A stretch of 64,000 nucleotides of DNA from Cyanidioschyzon merolae (GCA_000091205.1 AP006500.2), one strand, 5' to 3'. Numbered from the stretch's first letter, positions 331 through 58,440 are shown. Made by a program: numbers and translations. The notes: generated by a model from the letters alone, not told the origin.

Positions 331-3300
331 CGGTGATGTGGCGGCATGCGCGGCCTCCGACGCTGCTCCACTGGGGCAGAACCCGGAAGGCCCCCGCTGA
401 TGGACTCCACTGCACGATGCAAGAGACCCCAAATGGGGCTCGAGGCATCTCTACCGATGAACGCTTGTGATGATATACTGAACGGCGATCTCGATAACTG
501 TTCTGAGCGGTCGTGTGGTACGAATCCAACACGACGCAGTCGTGACGCTATAATGCCATCATCTTTCGCGCGTCGGCGCCACACGGGCGCAGCAGCCGGA
601 CTTGTGAGTGGTATAAAAGAGGGTCCCAGCTGCTTAACAGGCGAGTGCGATGGGGAAGCGCTTCTCCTGGGCGTTTCATCAATCTGCATTCCGATTGTTG
701 ATGTACCAGGGATGCTACCGTCCGCTGGGATTGGTTCGTGCTCCAGATTCGGGTGCATCTGGGGGTTTCTGCTGAGCTTCTCGTGGGAGGCGTCAGTGCA
801 TCGCGTGTGCGGATGCAATAGAGGTCGTGTAGGCGCGGTAGACGTTTCGTCTGTGAACGCGCTGGGGTCCTCAAGCAGCCCACCGGCAAGCAAATTCACT
901 GTGGCATCATCGTTCGAGCGGTATTTCGACCGTTGGCCGGATGGACTCGGGCGTGAACTGAGCACCCCATGCTGGGTGAGGTCCTGTTCGAAGGCCCGTC
1001 TTTGAGACGTCGTTTGTCGATTGGGTTGCGGTGACGCTGCAGCGTTACAGGGTGAAGTTCGGTGCTTTGCTCGCTCCGTCTGCGACAAGCCTTGGCTGCC
1101 ACCAGTTAGGATTCGAGGCGCCTGACAAGGCACTGTGGTGGCCGCGAAACCTTCTCGGGAGGCGCTTTCAGCTTGGTCACATCCGCGTTCATCGCCACAG
1201 CGCTTTGGCACCCCGCCCAAGTGTTGCGACGCCAAGACTGTGGCCCGCCGATCTCGGTACGTTGGTGCTTGCAGCGGTGTCATGGCCGAAAGAGCCGGCG
1301 ACGCCTGGCTCCGCACACTGCCATTGTTCTGAGATATTCCTACGTCTGCTGTGGGCAGACGCTCTGCATCCCGTCGCGGTGTTCTGTCTGAAACGAACAC
1401 ATCGTCTTCTTTGGGAATTCGCTCTGCTTGTTCAACCGCCCGTTGCCAAGATGCTGCCCTTGGAGCGCTAAGGCGCTCAGCAAGCCCTGCACCAGCACTG
1501 CGTTGCGTAGCTTGGTTTCCAAGATGCTGTATAGATGGGGCTTGCTTCTTTGGGCTCAAGGCGGTGCTTCCTTTGGGAACCCCGCCATCCTTCAACTTTT
1601 TGAAGCTCCAGAAATAGTTGAAATCACTTAGTCCGGAACGATGGGGGGCTCGTGCATTTCGAGAGGGCGTACCCGGAGAGATGTTCGTGCAGGGCGACTG
1701 CACCTGAATCGCAGCAGGTGCCGCTGTTCCTGGGGAGCTCGTGTGCCGCAGCATCTGCACAGACTCCTCATCGGTCGTAGAATATGTTCTGATTCGTCTC
1801 TCGGTGACTAGCTTTTGCAGGACACGGTGTCGGGGGGACTGTCTTCCACTGAAAGCGTCTTCAGAGGAAGCAGCTTCGGGTAAAGGCGCGATAGGTATGG
1901 CGTCGTCACGGAGTTCGCCCTGTAGCACGGCACGAGGAACAAATTTTCTTTTCTTACGGGTCATTTGATCACCTCGAGGTGTTGCAGAACCGATAACGCC
2001 ACTATGGGTTTTGGATAGGGATGGCGTCAGCGGCTTGGCGTCAAAGCTCTCTGTGTGACGTCCATAGCGCTCCGCGTCGCTTTCCTGGGTGGGCAGCAGC
2101 CCCGTCTGCATTGCTGGTTCGCGAGCCTTTGCATACAGTTCGTGCTCGGCGTCAACTGCACTATCAGTTGAACCGTTAAACTGGGTGTCAACACGCCCTT
2201 TTTGAATCGCACTGTTTCTGCGCATGTATTCGCCAGGAGCCAGTTGGGGTTCGGTGTTAGATCGCACGCTCCGGAGTCGCGCAGGTTGTGAGCAGTTCCA
2301 CGCTTCGTTCTGAACAGACTGCGTAGCTTCTCGAGGACGTACGCCCGGGTCCGCTTCTTTCAAGTTAAAAGGATTCGCATCTTCGCTACTGTTCTCCCAC
2401 GGGGCGACACCCGCCTCCCGCCGTGGCAGACCCGGCGACCAGAGGCTCGCGAGCCAGACAACACCGCACCAACCTAACCATGTTCCCAACATAGAGAACG
2501 TGCCTCGAACCAGATTCTCCTTGAGTTGTCCTTCGCAGCAGGTCACTTGCGCTGCTTATCCCGACACGAAGTGCAGTATCGCGTAGCAACGGCTGGGAAG
2601 CACTCGCTATCGTGCTGGGGTTTCGCGCGTGGCGGGAACGCAGCATCGCAGCATTGCGGGAAATCTGACAGCTTAGTTTCGATTTCTAGAGAGCCATGTT
2701 AGAAAAAATGGGTCAGGTTTGCGCAGCGAACAGGAGCGTCCGCCTTACAGCTCGAGCGTCTCCTGAAGATCCTCAATGCCAGCCTTTTGCAGGCTTTTTC
2801 TGTCAACAGCTTCCTTTTTGTCTCTCTTATCTGGAGTCTGAAATACGCCGGTCTCTGTTTTCCCTTCTGCGGCGTTGCCAGCCTTTAAAGGACACGGATG
2901 GCAGCGGTACACCACCGATTTCGCTGCTTCCGGTCGTTGTCGACGAATTTCAAGTATAAGCGGTAGTTATGGTCTACATTTCGCATGTCATATTCATCTT
3001 CATTGTGTACAACCTTGTTGTGGCCTTGCCAGCCGTGACGCATGACAGTGTTCAGATCTTGCCATATGTCTACAATTAGTCCTCCTTCGCCTCCCTGAGG
3101 CGCCATGTGCCGCATGAAGGAAGGCTTTATCGCCCCGCACATGTCCTTGACGGGCACAGGAGGCTCGCGTTGGTGTCATGTTTCCTTGCAATCGCCGGTG
3201 AGGTACCCTGGGAGCACAAGTTTCTTCTGAGCAATCCACTCGGTAAGTACGCTGTCCGTTGCAAAAACAAGCGCATGTTGCTCCATTTAGTAGAGGATTT

Positions 3301-7643: not shown

Positions 7644-8117
7644 TCTGACGTCGGCAGAATCCGGAACGTCTCCAGAACGCGCCACTGGTACCCGTGGCGA
7701 CAACAGCGGCAGAGCAGGTGCGCTCTTGTGCAGACTGTTCAGTACCGCGGTCGCGATGCTACCGCTGGCGCTAGCCACAGGGTACCCATGTTCATTGAAT
7801 GGAATGAGGGCTTGCGGGCAGTCCTGGCGCCAACTGCCTGCAATCCGCAATGTCGGCTTCGTGCGCACGTATGTCACTTCATGTGCACGGCACGCATGCG
7901 GCCTATCGGCAGACGCGCGTTCTCTGTAGCGGCTCGCTGCCTCCGAAATCTAAAGCCCATGTTTTAGTTTACCTCAAATGATACATAGCTGTCGAGAATG
8001 CTGCGTACCGGAAACATCCAAGTACCTGGAGCGAAAGTCACGGAGCACGTCTTGCATCCCAGTGGCAACCTGGAAGCGTCAACTCCCAGGGGAAAAACCA
8101 CCACACGGGGCACACAC

Positions 8118-8353
8118 CATCACCGCCTTTCGAAAGTCGAACGGCAGCAGTGTACAGTAGTGGCGGCAACCGCGCCCTAGACGAAACGTCTCCAACCGAC
8201 GTGCAGACGCCTCCCGGTTTTTCTCGACCGAGCACCCACTACTGCTTCCAACTTCTTTTCATATAGTTCCACTTTGAAAGGTTATCCAATAAAGTTCTCT
8301 CTTGTCGACTCTGGAGGTCTCTTCTCCAGCACCGCACATTTCCTTATATTGAT
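8118..8353 (-). ncRNA. Candidate omegaRNA scaffold / right-end module of the Fanzor element. It overlaps the last ~23 codons of the nuclease ORF and ~165 bp downstream.
   Basis: A ~235-bp block conserved at roughly 85-90% by eye with 22601..22837; its core is conserved again at 28636..28674. It contains short perfect hairpins (ttcga-aag-tcgaa at 8129..8141; gacg-aaa-cgtc near 8181..8191). Its position relative to the ORF matches the TnpB/Fanzor omegaRNA architecture. Homology stops sharply at 8118 in both copies, as expected for an element end followed by the guide. Confidence 0.45.
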
Positions 8354-10540
8354 AGCGGCATTAAAGTCTCGGTTCACGAATTCCATCCGTTTCTTGCTAT
8401 CACTTGTTGTACTAACCAATGCAAGTAGCCCTCGCACTTTTGCCCTCCTCTCCATTTGCTCCTCCGTCAGCGGTCCGTACTTTGCTATTTCCTCAGGATT
8501 CCGCTGGCACTTTTCCATCCCGACCCTTCGAAGTGTACACCCCAGCTCGTGGTGTGTATAGGACGTTCGGAACTCATCCACAGGTATCGTAAAGAGACGC
8601 CTTGCGCACTCTTTGTACGCTCTCGTCGTTGGAGCTGGCGTAGTTCCTTTTAGGGTCTTCCATCGCCCTGCACCGTACGCTACTACGAGCCTCTGATTTT
8701 CATTCTCCTTGAGCGCGCTCAACTGATTGAAAAAGTTGGCGAACGCCCGCTGCCTCCCACCGTATAGATGCATACACAGACGAGCCCACCGGGGCTTGGT
8801 ATACTCCTCCCACAGCGCATCCCAATGGGCAACACGAACTCCCATGGATTTCCGGAAAGCTTCAAAGTCGGCTCCTCGGCTCGTCACCTCGCTCAACGCT
8901 TCCAGGTGATCCTTCATTCCTGAATTCCAAGTCTCGATTTCCTTCCTCGCATTCATGATTGCCGATTCTCGATAGTATCTCGCTCTCGAGAATCTCAACA
9001 GACGCATATCTTTCTGACGTAAGTTGCCGTCAGTACCATCTTCCGCACGCTTCGGTGCTGCGACGGCTATAATATTCGTATTTCCAGGGTCCGCGCCAAC
9101 GATAAAGTCGTTATCCTGCACTTTCTGCTTCTCAGAGCCCGCCTTGTTGTTTTCTTCATGCTTCGTCGCGTCTACGACAAGGTCGTTATCCTGCACTTTC
9201 TGTGTGGCAGGATCCGCATCCTTCTCATCTCCATGCTTCGTCACGTCAACGATAAAGTCGTTATCCTCCACCTCCTGCGTCGCAGGACCCGCCCCTTTGT
9301 TTTCTTCATGCTTCGCCGCGTCAACGATAAGGTCGTTGTCCTGCACCTCCTGCATCACAGGATCCGCCTCCTTGTTTTCTTCATGCTTCGTCACGAGCGC
9401 AGCCAAGGGCGGAACTGGACGATCTTTCTTCAACCGCCAATAGCGTATACACAAGGCTACTCCATCGGTTTCGATCAACCCAATGAATACCTTCTTCTTG
9501 CTCACTTTGAGACGTTTGAAATCGAAGATGCTCATCCAGTACGTCTCCCGGTTTTCGCCGGTGAAGTCCTCCCTGCTAAAATCGAACTCGGGACTGATCT
9601 CCCTCATGACGCCATGAAGGATTCTGGAGTCGATAGTCACAAAATGTGACTTGATGTTGCCCAACGGAACCACGTTGAAGCGCTTCCCCATTAGGAAAGC
9701 CTTCCGTCTCTCCCACTCTTCATTTGTCTCTTCACTCAGCATCACCTCTGCCTTGCGTTCGATGTCACGATCCAGAAACACGAAATACCGCAGGACGAGG
9801 CGATAGTATCTTTCCTTCTCTTTTTTCAACGCTAATATCTTGTCTGTTGGATTCACCAGCCCCAGTCCCGCACGATCCTCTTGTATAACCGCACGGATCG
9901 TAGAGGCTTCATTGGTGCTCACCTTTGACGTCGTCTTGTCGACAAATTCGACCTCATCTTCACGCTTGCGATCTTTCATGATGCCATTGATAATCGCCCA
10001 TTTCCCATTGCGAGAGATGCCCGAGTAGAGTGCAATCACAGCGCGTCTCATGAAACGTTCGAGGTTCACTGTCAAATGGTTCTTCAGATTCGTGATGTAC
10101 TTCATGGGCCTATATGTGTAAATATCCCGGTCACCCTTGTATCGAGTACCATTGAGGCTGTAAAAGGGATGTTTTTCGTGGAAGACATCCACCCGCTCAT
10201 TTTCCTCCCGCGCTTCCTCTGTACCAAGCGTCAGCTGACGAATAAAAATCTTGTCGAAAAACACGTGTGGAATCTCGACCGTTTCGATGGGCGTCACGTC
10301 GCGATACATCTCCCTCTCCAAATGCATCAGTCCTGACGACGCCTTGAAAATACTCTTGGAGTACGAGTCCACACGTTTTTTGATAGCGTCTCGCAACTTT
10401 TCCTTGTAGGGATCCTTGATATGTCCAAGAAGAAAGGTTTTCACAACCATCTCGTCGTACAGTTGTCTTTCTTGCCGCCTTCGACGTAGGGTATCCCCCT
10501 TTCGGTTCTTCTTCTCTTCCTTTTCTTCTGGACTAGACAC
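8282..10540 (-). CDS. Fanzor (eukaryotic TnpB-like, RuvC-fold RNA-guided endonuclease; OMEGA effector), Fanzor1-like. It has a long N-terminal extension and an internal acidic tandem-repeat insertion.
   Basis: 752-aa ORF. RuvC-I: '[18 protein letters not shown]'. RuvC-II: '[18 protein letters not shown]'. RuvC-III: '[18 protein letters not shown]', which matches the DxNAAxNI signature of TnpB/Fanzor. Spacing is I-to-II ~170 aa and II-to-III ~70 aa. The region between II and III has only 2 Cys (non-canonical zinc finger). It is embedded among eukaryotic housekeeping genes. Confidence 0.75.
9098..9396. repeat. Coding tandem repeat of 4 x ~75 bp inside the Fanzor ORF.
   Basis: Units begin 'acgataaagtcgttatcctgcac...'. 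They encode ~25-aa acidic repeats '[26 protein letters not shown] / [24 protein letters not shown] / [26 protein letters not shown] / [19 protein letters not shown]'. The last unit runs into the RuvC-I motif. Confidence 0.8.
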
Positions 10541-10760
10541 TGTTTTTTGTTTTTTCTGGCAGCCAGCGACACTGGGCCTCCAGGATCGTCGATTTGCTTT
10601 TTCATAACTTTCCTTTTTTTAGTTTTTTTGGAAAAGAACGCTCCCTCAACGCCTCTGATATAAACAGCGAAAGAAAACTTGAAAAAACTAAACTGAGGGT
10701 TGAAATATAACTGAACTGAAAAGTATACTCTGCTGTGACTTTAACGCAAATACAACGTGC
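10541..10760 (-). promoter_or_regulatory. AT-rich 5' flank, the putative promoter/5'UTR of the Fanzor ORF.
   Basis: The local AT content is much higher than the surrounding GC-rich sequence (poly-T/A runs and TATA-like 'ttatattt' on the sense strand). It lies immediately upstream of the ATG at 10540. Confidence 0.3.
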
Positions 10761-10940
10761 ACTTGAGAGCAACACGCTCAAGATCGCGATCCCGTTTCCC
10801 TTCAACAACGACATGCGCGTCGTATTTCATGCCTCCCAGATATGGAGGTGCGCGTATCGACCGCGATGCCCCCTGGCACTCGGACGTGAACTCCAAATAC
10901 CCTCAATAGAAGCATTAGCAGCAGGCTGCCGGGCACGCAT

Positions 10941-11708
10941 ATGGGCCAAAGGGCCCGCCATGCGCACCTGGTTCAGTCGGATTTTCATGCAGACCCCAAC
11001 GCACCGCAAGAACTCTTGGACGAAATCGACGCAGATTTGGCTGAAGCGCCTCTTAGGCGAAAACATTCTCCCCAATCGTTCCCCAGAAATATAGAAGGCT
11101 CCCGCCGCCTGAAGCGAACGGTCCAAACAACAGTACGGGAATGTAGACATGCAGTCAGTCGCGCGAGTAACGCCGGCTTGACTCTATACCGGAACTACAG
11201 CCTAGCCTGTTCATGCACGTACTGGTGGGAGGCGCTGGAGTTCACGGGACTTGCTCGAGGTACACAGTGGCTCGCCAAAATCCGCGTTGGTGGCTTCTGG
11301 CTACCAGCACCGGCTCTAAGCCGTATAGGAACACTGGAATCGCACTGGGAATCACACTGTCCCTGCTATCGAGACGAAATCCCCGAGACCCTGACATATG
11401 TAGGCGTACAGTGCCCGCGCTGGAAGCAGGAGCGCAGCGAGCTCCTTGAAGGACAGCAGCAGCTGGGCATCACCGTGATAGTCGAAGGCCGGACACTCAC
11501 TCTGAGTGTAGCACTGGCAACTGATGGTCCGCTAACCGAGCATCAGCGCTCATCAATGGCGAACAAACGCATATGCTACCTTCTAGGTGGAAGATCCAGC
11601 GGATCGGATGCGCACACGGGCTCAGTGCGCTCTCTGCGCCTACCTTCTGTGGTAGGTTTCAAGCACAAACCCGCATTGCCAACCGACAACAACGCATTCC
11701 ATGCATGA
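10941..11708 (+). CDS. Hypothetical ORF with a zf-RVT-like motif (CPxC...ET...CP...W), as found at the C-terminus of non-LTR retrotransposon ORF2 proteins. It is a possible decayed LINE fragment.
   Basis: Motif 'HWESHCPCYRDEIPETLTYVGVQCPRWKQERSEL'. No RT catalytic motifs were seen. It lies between the Fanzor start and repeat B on the opposite strand. Confidence 0.25.
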   Translation: MGQRARHAHLVQSDFHADPNAPQELLDEIDADLAEAPLRRKHSPQSFPRNIEGSRRLKRTVQTTVRECRHAVSRASNAGLTLYRNYSLACSCTYWWEALEFTGLARGTQWLAKIRVGGFWLPAPALSRIGTLESHWESHCPCYRDEIPETLTYVGVQCPRWKQERSELLEGQQQLGITVIVEGRTLTLSVALATDGPLTEHQRSSMANKRICYLLGGRSSGSDAHTGSVRSLRLPSVVGFKHKPALPTDNNAFHA

Positions 11709-11945
11709 TCACGAAGGAGAGAGGCGGCTCCCAGGATATATCCTAACAGCCAAGTTTCTCCAGCGTGTCGTGCAGCGAAGGCAAGCCTGCATCCGCAGAC
11801 TGTCCAAGCACAAACTGACGACGAGGCCCGATTCTACTTCAGGTGAAGTACGCCTCGAGCCGATGCCCTCTGGGGTATAGAAAAGCAGTTCTAGCTCTAT
11901 GAACTATCTGATCCAGCGGTACAGGTCCAAAGGTGGATACGGAAA

Positions 11946-12139
11946 GGCAGGTACTAGGCACACTCGATAGGACGTATGAAACGACCAGAACATCCGAGAT
12001 GAAGTATATGTACTGTAACTTGGAGGTAGGGTGTTTGATAGATACCTCACCGCGCTCTGAAAAAATATAAAGTAAGAAAAGAAAAATGCGCATAATCGGA
12101 GAACGCTGGCCCAAGTAAACGTCTTGTCAATGAAAAAAA
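11946..12139 (-). repeat. Repeat family B, copy 1. It is the reverse complement of the copy at 22838..23027 and a possible element left-end region.
   Basis: Roughly 85% identical by eye over ~190 bp to the reverse complement of 22838..23027. Homology extends through 'gtcaatgaaaaaaa' (12126..12139). The plus-strand TATA-like 'tataaag' (about 12066..12072) has no counterpart in copy 2. Confidence 0.6.
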
Positions 12140-22600: not shown

Positions 22601-23027
22601 CATCACCACCGCCGTTCGAAAGTCGAACGACAGCAGTGTGCAGTCGTGGCGACCGGCGCCCTAGACGAAACGTCTCCAACTGACGTGCAGACGCCTCCCC
22701 GTCTTTTTGGACCGGCCACCTTCTACTGCTTCCAACTTCTTCTCATATAGTTCGACTTTGAGAGGTTGTCCAACAAAGTTCTCTCTTGTCAGCTCTGGAG
22801 GTCTTCTCTCCAGCACCGCACATCTCCTGATACTGATTTTTTTCCATTGACAAAATGTTTACTTAGGCCAGCGTCCTCCGATTCTGCGCATTTTTCTTTT
22901 CTTACTTTTTTTTCAGTGCGCGGTAAGGTATCCATCAAACGCCCTACCTCCAAGTCATATTCCCTATACTTCGTCTCGGATATTCTGGACGTTTCATACG
23001 TCCTACCGTGTGTGCCTAGTGCCTGCC
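22601..23027. mobile_element. Solo composite remnant: module copy 2 (22601..22837, omegaRNA-scaffold/right-end homolog in the same orientation as locus 1) joined directly to repeat B copy 2 (22838..23027). It lacks a Fanzor ORF.
   Basis: The module homology ends at the position equivalent to 8353, inside the Fanzor ORF 3' end. The B homology begins at the very next base. B is inverted relative to its orientation at locus 1. Short overlapping ORFs here are just read-through of the repeat. Confidence 0.55.
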
Positions 23028-24275
23028 GAGAGCGATAGCAATGGCGCCTGTAGCCCCGGTGCGGTCGCTGCACGGAGACAGAACGGCGTTGCCGTACCAC
23101 ACAGAGGGCGTCTGCCCGAGGAAATTGCGGTGAGGACGAGATTCCAACTCGCGCGCTCAAAGAGCATATCCTTGGCAGGCACACCCGTTAACCATGGCGG
23201 TACTTCTGGTGCAGAGGTATCTCCGGCACCTCACCGGTAATCCCCTAGGAAATCCGATAGTTTGGCGATTCTCCTTCCTAAATTTTCGGTAATTTGTATT
23301 GTGTGCCAAGTGCACGAGCCTATCTCAAACCAAATGGATTCGGCTCTGGCTCGAATCCATGACGGTCGAGGGTTCCATCAGTTAGCAGTTCGGATGTTCT
23401 TCTTATTTGTTAGCATTCGTGATGCTAAAGTGGAAAGGCGTCGTGTTCTACGATGATGTGGAAAATGCTTTGCTTGTTCCGATGCCTATTTGCGCGGATC
23501 GTATCCAGCGGAATTTGGCAGGGATGCATAGAGTCTATATCGAGTGAACAAGTCTGCCGCTCGCCCGGTGAACGCCCGCCATCGAGTGATTGCCTTTGTG
23601 CGGAAACCATGGGCCGGCATTTTTCAGCCCATGGGATACGGGCACTCCGCAGAGTTTCAAGTCAGCTGCTGGCTACGCGCGCACGCAGTTCACCCTGGAC
23701 ACAGTCGAGACGACGACGCCCCATGCGGTGACGGACGGGGCGCTCGACAAGGTTTAAAAACGGTGCAGACCGCATGAGGTTTCATACGGACAAACTTTGG
23801 AGAATACAGCACGAAAAAGTCCCCAGAGCAGTGTCGTTCAAACAAGCCGAGCCTTTCCTGGGTGTACTCGTTCAGAAACGGTGCGTCCCAGCGCGTGCTC
23901 ACTCCCTACCCGCTTCCTCGCACGATCAGCCAGCTGTTGCTCCAGAGGCGGCACTGCGCAGATTTTTCCATCATTTTCAGAACTTTGATTGCCACTGTTT
24001 CACAAATGCGCAGAAACCAGCACTCGTAAAGCGCCACTTCGTTGCCATCGCTTCTGCACTTGAGCCCCTACTGCGCTGCAGAGTGGATGCCGGACGGCGC
24101 GGTGAGACGCGGAGCGCGCGTAAAGTACATAGTTCGATGATCAACTACGTTCTTTCATCAAGGCCAACAGTCAACTTCGCTGGTTTCCGGTCTAACTGTT
24201 TCTGAGTGCTGTTCAGAGCGATCATCCCTTGGGTAGCAGGAACTCGAGCAGTTCCCGAAATACAAGCCCTGGACG

Positions 24276-27989: not shown

Positions 27990-28700
27990 ATTAAAGACTT
28001 TCCCATGATTTCCGGCGATGTCCTTCAACTGGACAGCTTCCCAATTCACCATTCCACTTGCGCTCGAGCTTCTCCCGATTTTGTTGGAGTAGAGCCACTT
28101 CTCATTCCGCCGTACACTCCGTGGGTGAACCGCATCTAAGAGAGAGTTTTCTATTGTGGAGCGCAATGGTCGCTGCACTCGGAGAATCCCTGTGCCATTC
28201 AGCAGTCAGCGACACCGAGACACTTGCCGTCTTTTTCCTGCAAGTCCTTCTTGCTCCGGGAAGGTTCTTACGTGGGGGCATAAGCATGTGCATTGATTTT
28301 CAAAATTAAAGACCCTAAGGCATGCGCCGAGTGTACAGTTCAGAACATCGTTATGGAGAGCAGGCAGCGGAGTGCTGAGGACATAGAAAAGCACGGAGAG
28401 CTGCCGGAGCACCAAACGGCACAGAGGGCGCGAGTTCTTGGACTCCTCGCACTGACCAGTTCAACCAATCGCAAGAAACACATTGAGTTCATGAACTGAG
28501 ACTTTACCGCCGCCATCAATATCAGGAGATGTGCGGCACTGAAGAAGAGACCCGCGGAGCTGATGCGAGCCAGCCTTGTCGGACAACCTCTCAGTGTCGA
28601 GGTGTATAGGAAAAAGCTGAGGCTGATAACAGACAGCCGGTCGAAAAAAAGCTGGGAGGCGTCTGCAAGTCGGTGTATGTATGTGCTCTATGATCGCGAA
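27990..28700 (+). pseudogene. Degraded Fanzor/TnpB-like paralog. It has frameshifts and an in-frame TGA before the RuvC-III motif, has lost its stop, and is followed by a partial copy of the omegaRNA-like module (core 28636..28674).
   Basis: '...TAQRARVLGLLALTSSTNRKKHIEFMN*DFTAAINIRRCAALKKRP...' aligns with the locus 1 C-terminus '[46 protein letters not shown]'. Upstream fragments 'SHFSFRRTL', 'IVERNGRCTRRIPVP', 'DTCRLFPAS' match 'AFANFFNQL', '[19 protein letters not shown]', '[11 protein letters not shown]' in shifted frames. Downstream, 'ccggtcgaaaaaaagctgggaggcgtctgcaagtcgg' matches the reverse complement of 8196..8232. Confidence 0.5.
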
Positions 28701-43703: not shown

Positions 43704-46700
43704 GTGGACGCGTGCGGTCGGAACGTTGGTCAAATTTGGTTTTGGGGTTGTTTGGCTCCGGGAACGCTGGTGTTCATGGAGGACGAACATCCTGCGCCTA
43801 ACTCGGATCGCACCTATGCCAGCGACTTGGAGCAGGGGAACGTTTTCGGGAGCAGCCCCTCCGAGCGACACAGTTTCAGCCGCCTTGATGGCAACCGAGC
43901 GGGTTCCATTGGGGATGAGATGGATAGTGATGTAGCTGTTGATGAAGAGGACCGGAATGCGGGTATGGAGGTACTCGGGTTGTTCTCAGTCAGGGCGCGC
44001 TCTCGGGCTCGAGTGCGCAGCGATAACCGCGACGGCAGTGACAGTGGTAGTGCTCTTGACGAGGGCGTCGACGACAACAGCGACGATCATGGCGATGATA
44101 TTGCTGGATTCGGTGAGAGCGACGATCTATCGGGAGACGTGGACAGCAGTGATTGCGGTTTTGAAGACGACCAAAACACCGATGTCGACGCCGCTGGAGA
44201 GAGCGACCTGGAAGAGTTTCCGGACCCAGCTGAAGGAGAGCTGGACTCGTTTCGCCACGACGTGGATGCCACCGATGATGACTTGGGAGAAGAAAACGCC
44301 TCTGATGCGGACGCTTCAACCTTTGGCGATGGCATGGATCACGACGACGACGACGAAGACGAAGACAACGACGACGATGATGATGACGAGGGCGAGGACG
44401 ACGACGACGACAACGATAACGTTGACGAAGAGGAAGACGACGGCGACGACATGCCAAGTGATGATGAGGATGCTGAGTATTCTCAATTTTTCGGCGTTGA
44501 ACAGGAGATGCTTTCCCTCATGGAGCAGCGCGGATCTGCCTGGATGGAGGGTATGCCGGCAGCGCACCTCCAAGCATTGCGCAGAGCCGACATCCAGGCT
44601 CAACGTCTTATGCAGCGCTTTCGGAATGCCGATGATGACATGGAAGTGTTCGTGGTCTGGCGTAATGGACAGGAAGCTGGCGAAATACTCGCAGATCGCG
44701 ATGAGGATGCTTCTCTACCTGGTCTAGGTATACATTTTCTTAACATGACCAACGAACAGCCAGACTGGGCTGAAGGTTTCGGTCTGGGAATCGCCGCAGC
44801 GAATGCGATGTTGCTTAGCGACCCGAGCAGCGAAGCGTTGCGGCCATACGCGCCTGCGCGGCTAGAGCTACCGCAACCGCCGCGCGTTGAGAGCGATTCG
44901 CGATCACCGTCCGAACGTAACTTGTCGGTCGCAGGCAACGTGCTGGACGGCTTGGGCAGTCGCCGACACAGCCCGGGCGCGACTCTGGGCAACATCTTGT
45001 TGTACGGTTCGGGTGCACACTGCCAAAGTTGCCCGAGATCAGCGCGCGAGGCGCTCTCAGCGCTTTGCCGTTCTGACGGCTTGCGCGCCCTGCTGGCGTC
45101 GAGCTCGGCGGTTGCACCGACCGCACTCATGATGCGACGCAATATCAGTTGTGGGGACTGCGGTCTCCGCAATGCGGCGGACGCTCGAATCCATGATTTC
45201 GCGGATCTCGTACTGCGAAGTCCAGCGTTCACAGAGAACCTTGGCCACGGCATCGCAGCTGCATATTTGGTCAGCAAAATGAATCCGCCTCCAAAGGAAT
45301 CCGAGCAGCTGTGGGATCTTGCATCCCTTGGAACCGTGCTCGCTGGAGCGCATTTTCATCCACTCTTTTGGGACGGCGCTCGCGGCAAGAGTTCCGAGTC
45401 GCCACTGCCGGGCTTGTATCGCGCACCACCTGCGCTGTCGATTCGGTTCTCTGAGGATTTGTTGGAAGCGCTGCTGGGGCTGCCTATTGGTCCACTGCTG
45501 GGCATCGATCGTTTCGGAACGCTGGCGGTCACCGGGACGCGCCAAAGGCGGCGAGATGTGCTGCGTCTGTATCGCGCGTTTGGCAGCTGCTCGCTGCGGC
45601 GTGGCGCACCGTACGATGCGCTCAGTGGCCTCGATACCCATGCACGTCATCTGGATACCCAGCAGAAGCGCTTCGCAGCGCTCCACGAGGAAATGCGAAC
45701 ACTCTGGCGCGATGAGCGCGTCCGTAGGGAGCGAGCCCAACTTGACGACGAGTACCGCCGTCTCGTTGACGAAGAGCAAGCGCAGGCCTCGGAATCCTGT
45801 GCGAATGGCAGGCAGGGCGAGCCCGACGTGCCCATGGAACGCTCAGAGCAGCAGGAGCAGGAGCAGGTGCTGCCAGCACCTGGCACGGAGATGGAGGCCG
45901 CTAGCTCATTGACTGGTTCGCTTCTGGAGCATGCGTCTGCTGCGAGTCCGTCACACCCAGCCAGCAGCGGTATGCTTACGGGAGCTGCGGAGACATCAGA
46001 CTCGGCCGTTGTGCTGTCTATGCAAATCGACGATTTGCCGGGCGCTACTCAAGTGCTGGGTCCCGACGCACCTGAACCTGCAGCGAGCGGTGCAGTCGAG
46101 CTCAGTTCGGACGCCGAAGTGCGAGCGCCGCCTGTATCGGACTCTACGACCGATCAAGAGGCAGGGACGCGTTCCATCACCGAGTCCGATATGGAGCACG
46201 TGGCGCGCACTGTCGGCATTGACCCCACGGTGCTCGTCGAGTTACCTCCAGATCTCCGACGAGAAGTCATTCAGCAAAACCTCGCCCAGATTCGGAGCAA
46301 CCCAGCATTTCTGAGCTACCTGCCGGTGAATGTGCGACAGGAAGTTGAGGAGGCAGCTGCCCAGCTTGATCGCCTTCGTGGCTCCGCAGCCGAGATGGAT
46401 AACGCTTCCTTTTTGGCAACGTTGCCCACTGCGCTGCGCGAAGAGATCTATCTAACCTCAGACGAATCGTTTTTGCAGTCATTGCCGCCGCACTTGGCGG
46501 CCGAAGCTCGCGCAGTCCGCGATCGTCGGCGATCATTATCATCAGCATCAGCAGCAGCAGCAGCTGCTGCTGCTTCGGCGTCGTTTCTTGGACCCAATGA
46601 TCTCACTTCTGGTGCGAGCGAAATTTCAGCGCTCATGTCAACGCCGCAAGTCAGCGCGCGAAAAAGCTGTGGCCTTGTCCTGGTCACGCAGTTGGATGTG

Positions 46701-57594: not shown

Positions 57595-57920
57595 AATGCA
57601 GACGAAACGGTAGTTGCTCTATCAGCAACGCTGAACAGTGCGCGAAAAGCAACTGTGTTTGCGCGCAGGTCCGCTCGCGAAGCCAGACGCCGCAGGCTAT
57701 ACCTTTCCGCAGAACGCGACTTTCGATAACACCTTCCTAGTGCTGTTTGGTACAGCAAAACTGTCCAAGGAATCCAAGAAGCTTCACAGTCCAGTGCCTG
57801 CAGTTGACGCAAACATAACCCCGCACCGTATCGGTCGTGAACACAATGCCTTACGTCCGCAGCTCAAGCGAGCACGCTTTGGGTTCTAGGTATAGGAAGC
57901 GCTTCGCCCTGCATTGTATT

Positions 57921-58440
57921 ACGCTATGAAGTGTTGGATTGTAGTACACTAGGATTTGTTATATAGTTTTACGCTATGAAGTGTTGGATTGTAGTACACT
58001 AGGATTTGTTACATTATTTTACGCTATGAAGTGTTGGATTGTAGTACACTAGGATTTGTTACATTATTTTACGCTATGAAGTGTTGGATTGTAGTACATT
58101 AGGATTGGTTACATTATTTTTAAGCTATGAAGTGTTGGATTGTAGTACATTAGGATTTGTTACATTATTTTTAAGCTATGAAGTGTTGGATTGTAGTACA
58201 CTAGGATTTGTTACATTATTTTACGCTATGAAGTGTTGGATTGTAGTACATTAGGATTTGTTACATAGTTTTACATAATAAAGTGTTGAATTTTAGTACA
58301 CTAGGATTGGTTATATCGTTTTACATTATAAAGTTTTGGATTGTAGTACATTGCACTGCATTGCTTTCATTTGTCACATCGCTTTACACGATGATGTTAT
58401 GGACTGTAGTTCATTGCACTGCATTGCTTTGATGTGCGCG
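57921..58440. repeat. AT-rich minisatellite: ~9 tandem copies of a 50-52-bp unit ('acgctatgaagtgttggattgtagtacactaggatttgttacattatttt'), followed by 2 copies of a related ~50-bp unit ('cattgcactgcattgcttt...').
   Basis: Period read directly from 57971/58021/58071/58122/58174. It lies in the divergent intergenic region between the giant gene (start 57594, minus) and the cyclophilin gene (plus). Confidence 0.85.

Follow-up and report, generated by a model that had tools for sequence, protein, structure and literature searches.

The 64,000-nucleotide stretch of Cyanidioschyzon merolae DNA analyzed here (GCA_000091205.1 AP006500.2; "the window" denotes this stretch at its full length) carries on its minus strand a copy of the CMe-1A transposon. 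The long open reading frame (ORF) of this copy appears, from its similarities, to encode a Fanzor1 nuclease. Directly ahead of the first catalytic residue of this ORF lies an array of four 75-bp tandem repeats. The features of the ORF are listed here in window coordinates.

8282–10540 (−): Fanzor1 (CMe-1 type) ORF, 752 codons from a GTG, without annotation in the C. merolae 10D gene set
9392–9475 (−): last WED strands and the non-repeated part of the linker (predicted strands 351–358 and 361–368)
9317–9391 (−): repeat unit 1, 25 codons, delimited by Tandem Repeats Finder (TRF) and unit alignment
9242–9316 (−): repeat unit 2, nearest relative unit 3 of paralogue L005 (93% identical)
9167–9241 (−): repeat unit 3, delimited by TRF and unit alignment
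9092–9166 (−): repeat unit 4, the original unit, ending in FIVGA, with which RuvC strand β1 begins
9089–9091 (−): codon of D484, the RuvC-I catalytic Asp, in GADPGN, aligned to IDPNK of SpuFz1
8573–8575 (−): codon of E656 of RuvC-II, in VDEFRTS, aligned to LDEYKTS of SpuFz1
8366–8368 (−): codon of D725 of RuvC-III, aligned to NRDM of SpuFz1

The four units (9092–9391, minus strand) follow each other head to tail without indels. TRF reported the array at 9092–9392 with a period of 75, 4.0 copies, 79% matches, 0% indels, and a score of 378. Ungapped self-identity at a lag of 75 nt is 79.6% over 225 nt at position 9091 (z = 12), compared to a background of 26.4 ± 4.4% across the window and a best value of 48% outside the array. 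All units are in frame with the 752-codon ORF, so that each encodes a 25-residue acidic unit; the net charge of the 100 residues is −16. The last unit directly abuts D484-P-G-N. Its end aligns to NVVVIDP of SpuFz1, and AlphaFold/DSSP places a strand at residues 479–484. These data confirm what a preliminary description of this DNA had noted, namely four in-frame 75-bp acidic repeats in a nuclease ORF, immediately N-terminal to RuvC-I. The same description called the repeats near-perfect, which they are not: pairs of units are only 76–87% identical in nucleotide sequence and 52–68% identical in amino acid sequence. A head-to-tail arrangement, a unit length between 10 and 100 bp that is a multiple of three, and an intact reading frame are the hallmarks of a coding minisatellite, and the array displays all of them. 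A higher-order period of 150 bp, also proposed by TRF, is unconvincing, as pairs 1–3 and 2–4 (81–83%) are no closer than pair 1–2 (87%). Both strands are open over the array; the plus-strand ORFs do not extend beyond the repeat, and its composition accounts for them. Searches of Pfam and PDB with the repeat region gave no credible match; the best hit, a designed alphaRep (E = 0.029), was judged to be compositional.

The split RuvC domain of the ORF retains an intact D-E-D triad in the alignment with SpuFz1, and D484 and P485 are invariant among the aligned homologues. Scans of Pfam and NCBIfam with the single sequence returned nothing above threshold, and a scan of PDB returned nothing usable. 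Only a hidden Markov model profile, built with four distant homologues, reached Fanzor structures, matching SpuFz1 from Spizellomyces (8GKH, E = 4.6e-8) and GtFz1 from Guillardia (9CER, E = 1.1e-3). When the profile was used for a second protein search, based on a word index, nearly all hits were members of the same family as the ORF. When an AlphaFold model of the protein was compared to PDB by Foldseek, the top seven matches were Fanzor1 structures (SpuFz/GtFz/PpFz, best E = 8.9e-7), followed by TnpB and Cas12, for a query of low confidence with a mean predicted local distance difference test score (pLDDT) of 44.8, in which the RuvC half alone reaches 60–85. In addition, 533 of 677 aligned residues (79%) are identical to the published CMe-1 consensus protein, and the sole gap in this alignment comprises 75 residues, which is exactly three units. 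Based on these sequence and fold matches we assign the ORF to Fanzor1, in agreement with the earlier reading of a TnpB-like effector of the Fanzor1 type.

By profile and by fold search, this ORF follows the WED-REC-WED-RuvC-TNB-RuvC architecture of SpuFz1, GtFz1, and PpFz1 (PDB 8GKH, 9CER, 9CF0), with a putative TNB, and the D..E..D motifs align. As in the window ORF, these three proteins contain a variable linker between the last WED strand (xTDG) and RuvC β1 (xDPx), and the linker of GtFz1 is likewise acidic. Unlike the linker of the window ORF, those of the three proteins are non-repetitive and approximately 45–55 residues long. The proteins also appear to differ in the putative TNB region between RuvC-II and RuvC-III. 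In the window ORF the CxxC zinc-finger cysteines appear degenerate: the region contains H-H...C...C without a paired CxxC and matches the Pfam family Cas12f1-like_TNB at E = 0.25, below the cut-off. Omega-RNA-guided cleavage has been demonstrated for SpuFz1, GtFz1, and PpFz1 (PMC10432273, PMC11423790), and for no CMe-1 protein.

CMe-1A was described in 2013 by Bao and Jurka as a Fanzor1 transposon family of C. merolae 10D (PMC3627910, Additional files 1–3). According to this source it is an old family with about 150 copies, each approximately 80% identical to a consensus of about 3.2 kb, and without terminal inverted repeats; the published consensus measures 3169 bp, and the CMe-1 consensus protein 734 residues (PMC3627910). 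The consensus DNA aligns to window positions 8142–10865 at 85–89% and overall at 78–89%: consensus segments 648–2196, 2122–3145, and 84–270 align at 84.7%, 89.2%, and 77.6%, the last one to window positions 12030–11839. On this alignment, the window element is a copy of the already known CMe-1A family.

8124–12113 (−): CMe-1A copy, approximate extent; the 3′ end is the last consensus base, the 5′ end is extrapolated from consensus positions 84–270
10603–10605 (−): canonical ATG of the family, out of frame because an A-run about 50 nt downstream (near 10556) has lost 1 nt
8282–8284 (−): premature TAA, CAA in the consensus; the last 35 residues are lost, and the tail is readable in frame beyond it

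Since the deletion in the A-run shifts the family ATG out of frame, the long ORF begins at a GTG; its first in-frame ATG encodes M31 (10448–10450). With a frameshifted start and a premature stop, the nuclease ORF of this copy is most likely a relic and probably non-functional. Stops or frameshifts are present somewhere in the ORFs around all 28 paralogous arrays examined (28/28), and among these copies the window copy has the longest open stretch, with 778 codons from stop to stop.

To compare arrays between copies, we scanned metagenome contigs and found 71 related loci. Both anchors that delimit the linker, IETDG of the last WED hairpin and DPGN, are present in 41 sequences, which represent 27 distinct loci when grouped at 97% flank identity. 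The distances between the anchors fall into 75-nt steps (147/159, 222/234, 309–314, 372–384, 447–459, and 533/534 nt), so that the number of units ranges from one to six over these 27 paralogous loci. Gene-called proteins with open arrays likewise cover one to six units. The published CMe-1 consensus has a single unit, AKHEEKKEADPATQEVQENDFVVGADPGN (AKHEEKKEADPATQEVQENDFVVG-ADPGN), and the window copy has four. At the window's own locus the number is constant, with four units in all three available sequences, that is, in the window and in two independent metagenome assemblies of the locus (L001 and L003), which are 99.4–99.5% identical over 7–20 kb.

Two of the metagenome contigs, Ga0080006_1165521 (L015) and Ga0078972_1000507 (L016), represent another orthologous locus. 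Their identity is 99.1–99.4% over a stretch of 10 kb that takes in 4 kb of flanking host DNA at either side; one has five units and the other three. The only difference between their arrays is a 147-bp insertion of two units (72 + 75 bp), with 0 mismatches in the remaining array, and the extra units are identical to hybrids of neighboring units. We read this difference from the two sequences as a recent in situ expansion by unequal exchange. Because orthologues differ by two units, the minisatellite still changes in situ, independent of transposition. Copy-number variation of the repeat, which the preliminary description had raised, therefore occurs between paralogous loci and at L015/L016. 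Neighboring units that are 91–95% identical occur in L007 and L024, and P0006 and P0127 contain series of near-identical units; such within-array duplicates record other recent expansions. On the tree of copies the unit numbers are interspersed, and because this tree is star-like, it gives neither the ancestral unit number nor a count of independent changes. In the literature searched on Fanzor, whether in connection with Cyanidioschyzon, disordered linkers, or tandem repeats, no account of the array was found, and the searched parts of the report by Bao and Jurka (PMC3627910) mention neither the repeat nor its variability. The element is known, but the array within it seems to have gone unremarked.

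The sequence of the unit points to its origin. It corresponds to exactly the 25 codons before the catalytic Asp codon and comprises the acidic end of the linker and the first residues of RuvC β1 (DNDFVVGA). Several copies, like the published consensus, have the one-unit state, and homologues at 31–46% identity (P0034–P0037) have repeat-free linkers of 40–46 residues with the motif xxDDFVVGxDPG. These observations support the earlier suggestion that the repeats originated by duplication of the segment just upstream of RuvC-I. Two short, similar strings, GTGGCG and TTGGCG, flank the single unit in the consensus and, we infer, could have seeded the first slippage. A second suggestion, that the window copy had expanded recently, has to be abandoned: its units are 13–24% apart, and each of the four is closest to a unit of another paralogue (87–93%), nearer than to most of its own neighbors. 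Only 6 of 58 units have their closest match within their own array. Since units are closest across paralogues, multi-unit arrays must be older than much of the diversification of the family, and the array in the window is not a recent expansion.

We then asked how the linker compares to those of other Fanzor1 proteins. An exhaustive profile search yielded 4260 representatives at E ≤ 1e-3, and the distance from xxTDG to DPG could be measured in 127 of the best 147 (a value of 379 residues was discarded because of a mis-anchored motif). The median linker of these 127 Fanzor1-like representatives is 41 residues long (interquartile range 37.5–48), compared to 128 residues in the window ORF. Two other representatives have linkers of at least 100 residues, P0237 (100 residues) and P0269 (144 residues), and a number of the longer linkers consist of charged, low-complexity sequence inserted at the WED-to-RuvC junction. 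Long insertions at one and the same site identify this junction as a recurrent insertion-tolerant site. Among the 127 measured linkers, a tandem array at the junction is seen in the CMe-1 family only. Two SAP-like motifs lie in the P0269 insertion and match Pfam SAP at E = 0.0021, which does not reach the cut-off; in other lineages the junction may host other inserted modules.

The structure of the array was predicted with AlphaFold2 from a 35-sequence alignment, and this model was used for secondary structure and relative confidence only. Residues 369–478 are without secondary structure, and their pLDDT of 24–31 is the lowest within a model that is weak overall. In a charge-hydropathy analysis the repeats are located far on the disordered side (H 0.343 versus a boundary of 0.474). 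In line with the disorder that had been considered for the repeats, this weak model predicts them to be unstructured.

The diversity among paralogues shows which parts of the protein have been under selection. The ratio of third-position to first/second-position diversity reaches 2.1–2.3 in RuvC and 1.3–1.4 in WED/REC; for the repeat units it is 1.04. The excess of third-position diversity in RuvC and WED/REC indicates that the family diverged largely under purifying selection on the protein. For first units the ratio is 1.02, and for last units, which include β1, it is 1.34. Diversity at all three positions of the unit (0.19–0.23) is near that at RuvC third positions (0.24–0.27), and within the window array each pair of units differs by 8–12 non-synonymous and 1–4 synonymous codons. 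For the internal units there is no detectable selection on residue identity. Their composition was compared to a simulation of drift based on the unit consensus, the observed number of changes, and the transition fraction. Stops per unit number 0.05, compared to 0.31 in the simulation, and the net charge is about −6, compared to near −4. A bootstrap over 14 arrays gives an excess negative charge of 1.06 per unit (95% confidence interval 0.36–1.79), and the deficit of stops holds. Lys plus Arg are below and Asp plus Glu above simulated drift, hydrophobic residues are slightly above it (z = 2.6), and a hydrophobic triplet is retained in most units (L/F 50–83%, V 60–100%). This pattern fits an array that was translated within a selected protein and kept acidic in composition, as is typical of disordered linkers.

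In our assessment, with a probability of roughly 0.75, the array is a coding minisatellite (variable number tandem repeat) in the Fanzor1 gene of a CMe-1A copy, situated in the insertion-tolerant linker between WED and RuvC, rather than a new functional module. According to this explanation, a 75-bp segment would have been tandemly duplicated in the ancestor of the CMe-1 family. The last unit alone would have kept the original role of leading into the catalytic D-P-G, with the upstream units serving as extra linker. Because the unit is 3 × 25 nt long, gain or loss of units never breaks the frame. Array length would shift by unequal exchange or replication slippage, and one to six units would be tolerated by the protein because the site is a flexible, insertion-tolerant loop. 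It follows from this proposal that an active enzyme should tolerate such changes and that array length should be nearly neutral. The sequence of the units would evolve at an approximately neutral rate, while remaining open and modestly acidic for as long as the family was selected for a working nuclease. Coding minisatellites whose in-frame units vary in number within a gene are known, for example, from yeast cell-wall adhesin genes. Like the window array, such genes have head-to-tail units whose length is a multiple of three; their length variants arise via recombination or slippage, as proposed here, and their product is of low complexity or disordered, as predicted here. The array differs from them in its host gene, a transposon-borne homologue of RNA-guided nucleases present in many decaying copies, and in having no length-linked phenotype.

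Several observations speak against this interpretation or weaken its support. The acidity of the units and their slight hydrophobic excess go beyond simple drift and would fit a function at the level of composition, not pure neutrality; the null simulation behind this comparison is crude, as it takes the majority consensus as ancestor, assumes uniform site rates, and treats units that are non-independent. Since the entire model is poor (mean pLDDT 44.8), the low pLDDT of the repeats is weak evidence for disorder. The charge-hydropathy plot is weak evidence as well, because by this measure parts of RuvC are marginally disordered, too. Finally, every copy examined is broken somewhere, so that none of them, whatever its unit number, is demonstrable as the gene of an active enzyme.

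The acidity of the units is one argument for a different explanation, in which the repeats would form a functional, length-tunable disordered region. Such an anionic tether next to RuvC might occupy the positively charged channel in competition with DNA or RNA, as autoinhibitor or nucleic-acid mimic, and the number of units might set the activity or specificity of the nuclease. Acidic disordered tails of DNA-binding proteins, such as that of HMGB1, do compete with nucleic acid. Like the array, the HMGB1 tail is rich in Asp and Glu, predicted to be unstructured, and tethered next to a basic nucleic-acid-binding surface, a likeness that is compositional only. Internal units with a charge of about −6, approximately one charge more negative than simulated drift, with fewer Lys and Arg and more Asp and Glu, would agree with a tether of this kind. 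So would the depletion of stops, which implies an array that was being translated at a time when selection acted on the family, and the acidic or charged linkers at the same junction in other Fanzor1 proteins (GtFz1, P0213). We nevertheless consider this explanation unlikely. The codon-position ratio of 1.04 shows no residue-level constraint, the unit number varies from one to six without pattern on the tree, and the retention of acidity is modest and derives from a crude null model. Furthermore, most Fanzor1 relatives function with a linker of about 41 residues, and the published consensus has one unit. A different role for the peptide would follow from the internal copies of the β1 start (DND-hydrophobic-V-V, without D-P-G), if these acted as decoy strands that swap into the RuvC sheet and produce catalytically dead conformers. 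The retained hydrophobic triplet and the slight excess of hydrophobic residues (z = 2.6) could be taken to favor decoys. This role is highly improbable, since AlphaFold puts just FIVGAD of the last unit into the sheet and leaves the others as coil, since residue-level constraint is absent, and since the retention can be explained by the shared ancestry of units that have diverged by about 14% from their consensus.

Two further explanations place the repeats outside of the protein altogether. Repeated DNA in a mobile element can in principle be a cis-acting site, and both strands of the array are open; the units could thus serve as binding sites for transposition proteins, or as RNA structure, with translation being incidental. 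The array is however located mid-ORF, about 1 kb or more from both ends of the element, and its period is exactly 25 codons. Stops are depleted in the sense frame and the charge of the peptide is retained, whereas the plus-strand ORFs are repeat-confined and compositional. Since the unit also derives from coding sequence for the linker and β1, a role at the level of DNA or RNA is very improbable, if marginally less so than that of decoy strands. Tandem repeats are also a generic risk in genome assembly, and collapsed or expanded repeats were the one circumstance that the preliminary description had named against itself. Apart from this general risk nothing supports an artefact. The units differ by 13–24% and are individually distinguishable, L001 and L003 carry the identical count of four units, and multi-unit arrays occur in dozens of independent contigs. 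We can therefore exclude this possibility with near certainty. The coding minisatellite in a tolerant linker remains the explanation that we prefer.

The surroundings of the ORF contain additional features. The ORFs adjacent to the Fanzor1 ORF are exact matches to the consecutive C. merolae 10D proteins BAM82337.1 and BAM82338.1. Within the 5′ non-coding region of the element, approximately 975 bp (10866–11838) are absent from the CMe-1A consensus and found in just 2–4 other loci. This stretch, which contains a 255-residue ORF (10941–11708, plus strand) without Pfam match, is possibly either an insertion nested in the element or a 5′ region specific to a subfamily. Conservation at the 3′ terminus of the element (window 8125–8145, minus strand; loci L004–L071) extends to ...TTTCGAAAGGCG. 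Most copies have a predicted terminal hairpin at this end, with two versions of the stem, CGTTCGA/TCGAACG and CGTTTTTC/GAAAGGCG, that are seemingly compensatory. A second inverted repeat, GCCGCCA-N14-TGGCGGC (variant TCGCCA/TGGCGA), is located just upstream. RNAalifold found a weak consensus structure (−9.1 kcal/mol) with little covariation for the 3′ end and left the hairpin unconfirmed; single-sequence folds show a recurrent terminal hairpin. These hairpins could be part of an omega-RNA scaffold or represent an HUH-type subterminal hairpin. The 10–15 nt of host DNA past the 3′ end of many copies (window ~8110–8123) are G/T-rich and alike among copies (TTYGNTG..., GTGGTGGTG...), which suggests either a target-site preference or a true element end few bases past the published consensus. 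Three fragments of the same family were found elsewhere in the window.

22628–22837 (−): solo CMe-1A 3′-terminal fragment, 212 bp, 90.6% identical to the consensus
22943–23123 (+): CMe-1A fragment adjoining the solo 3′ piece, matching the 5′ part common to CMe-1A and TE-N2_CMe
28331–28674 (+): CMe-1A fragment from the C-terminal coding region, 344 bp, 76% identical to the consensus

The window also contains a separate tandem array at 57919–58350 (50-bp unit, 8.6 copies, 91% matches, TRF score 650) and a GAC/GAT/GAA-rich tract at 44337–44451 (period 3, about 37 copies, with a higher period of 39 bp). The latter probably encodes a stretch of poly-Asp/Glu, if it is coding.

The most far-reaching consequence would follow if the expandable acidic repeat were a built-in rheostat at the mouth of RuvC that dampens or sharpens Fanzor1 cleavage in proportion to the number of units. 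We regard this idea as doubtful, and more so than the general notion of a functional tether. If it were true, rapid and frame-safe changes in copy number would let transposon lineages, or the host via recombination, tune the toxicity of the nuclease. A more practical aspect arises from ongoing work to turn Fanzor1 proteins into compact eukaryotic genome editors. The WED-to-RuvC junction accepts 25–150 extra residues with the ORF still open, which makes it a candidate site for the insertion of tags or effector domains, and the family provides a natural series for asking if an acidic tether has any influence on activity. In other respects the array is unexceptional, a repeat that is tolerated in a decaying transposon copy. 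For genome biology it amounts to a small correction: the one-unit CMe-1 consensus masks a length-polymorphic coding minisatellite that is still changing in natural Cyanidioschyzon populations.

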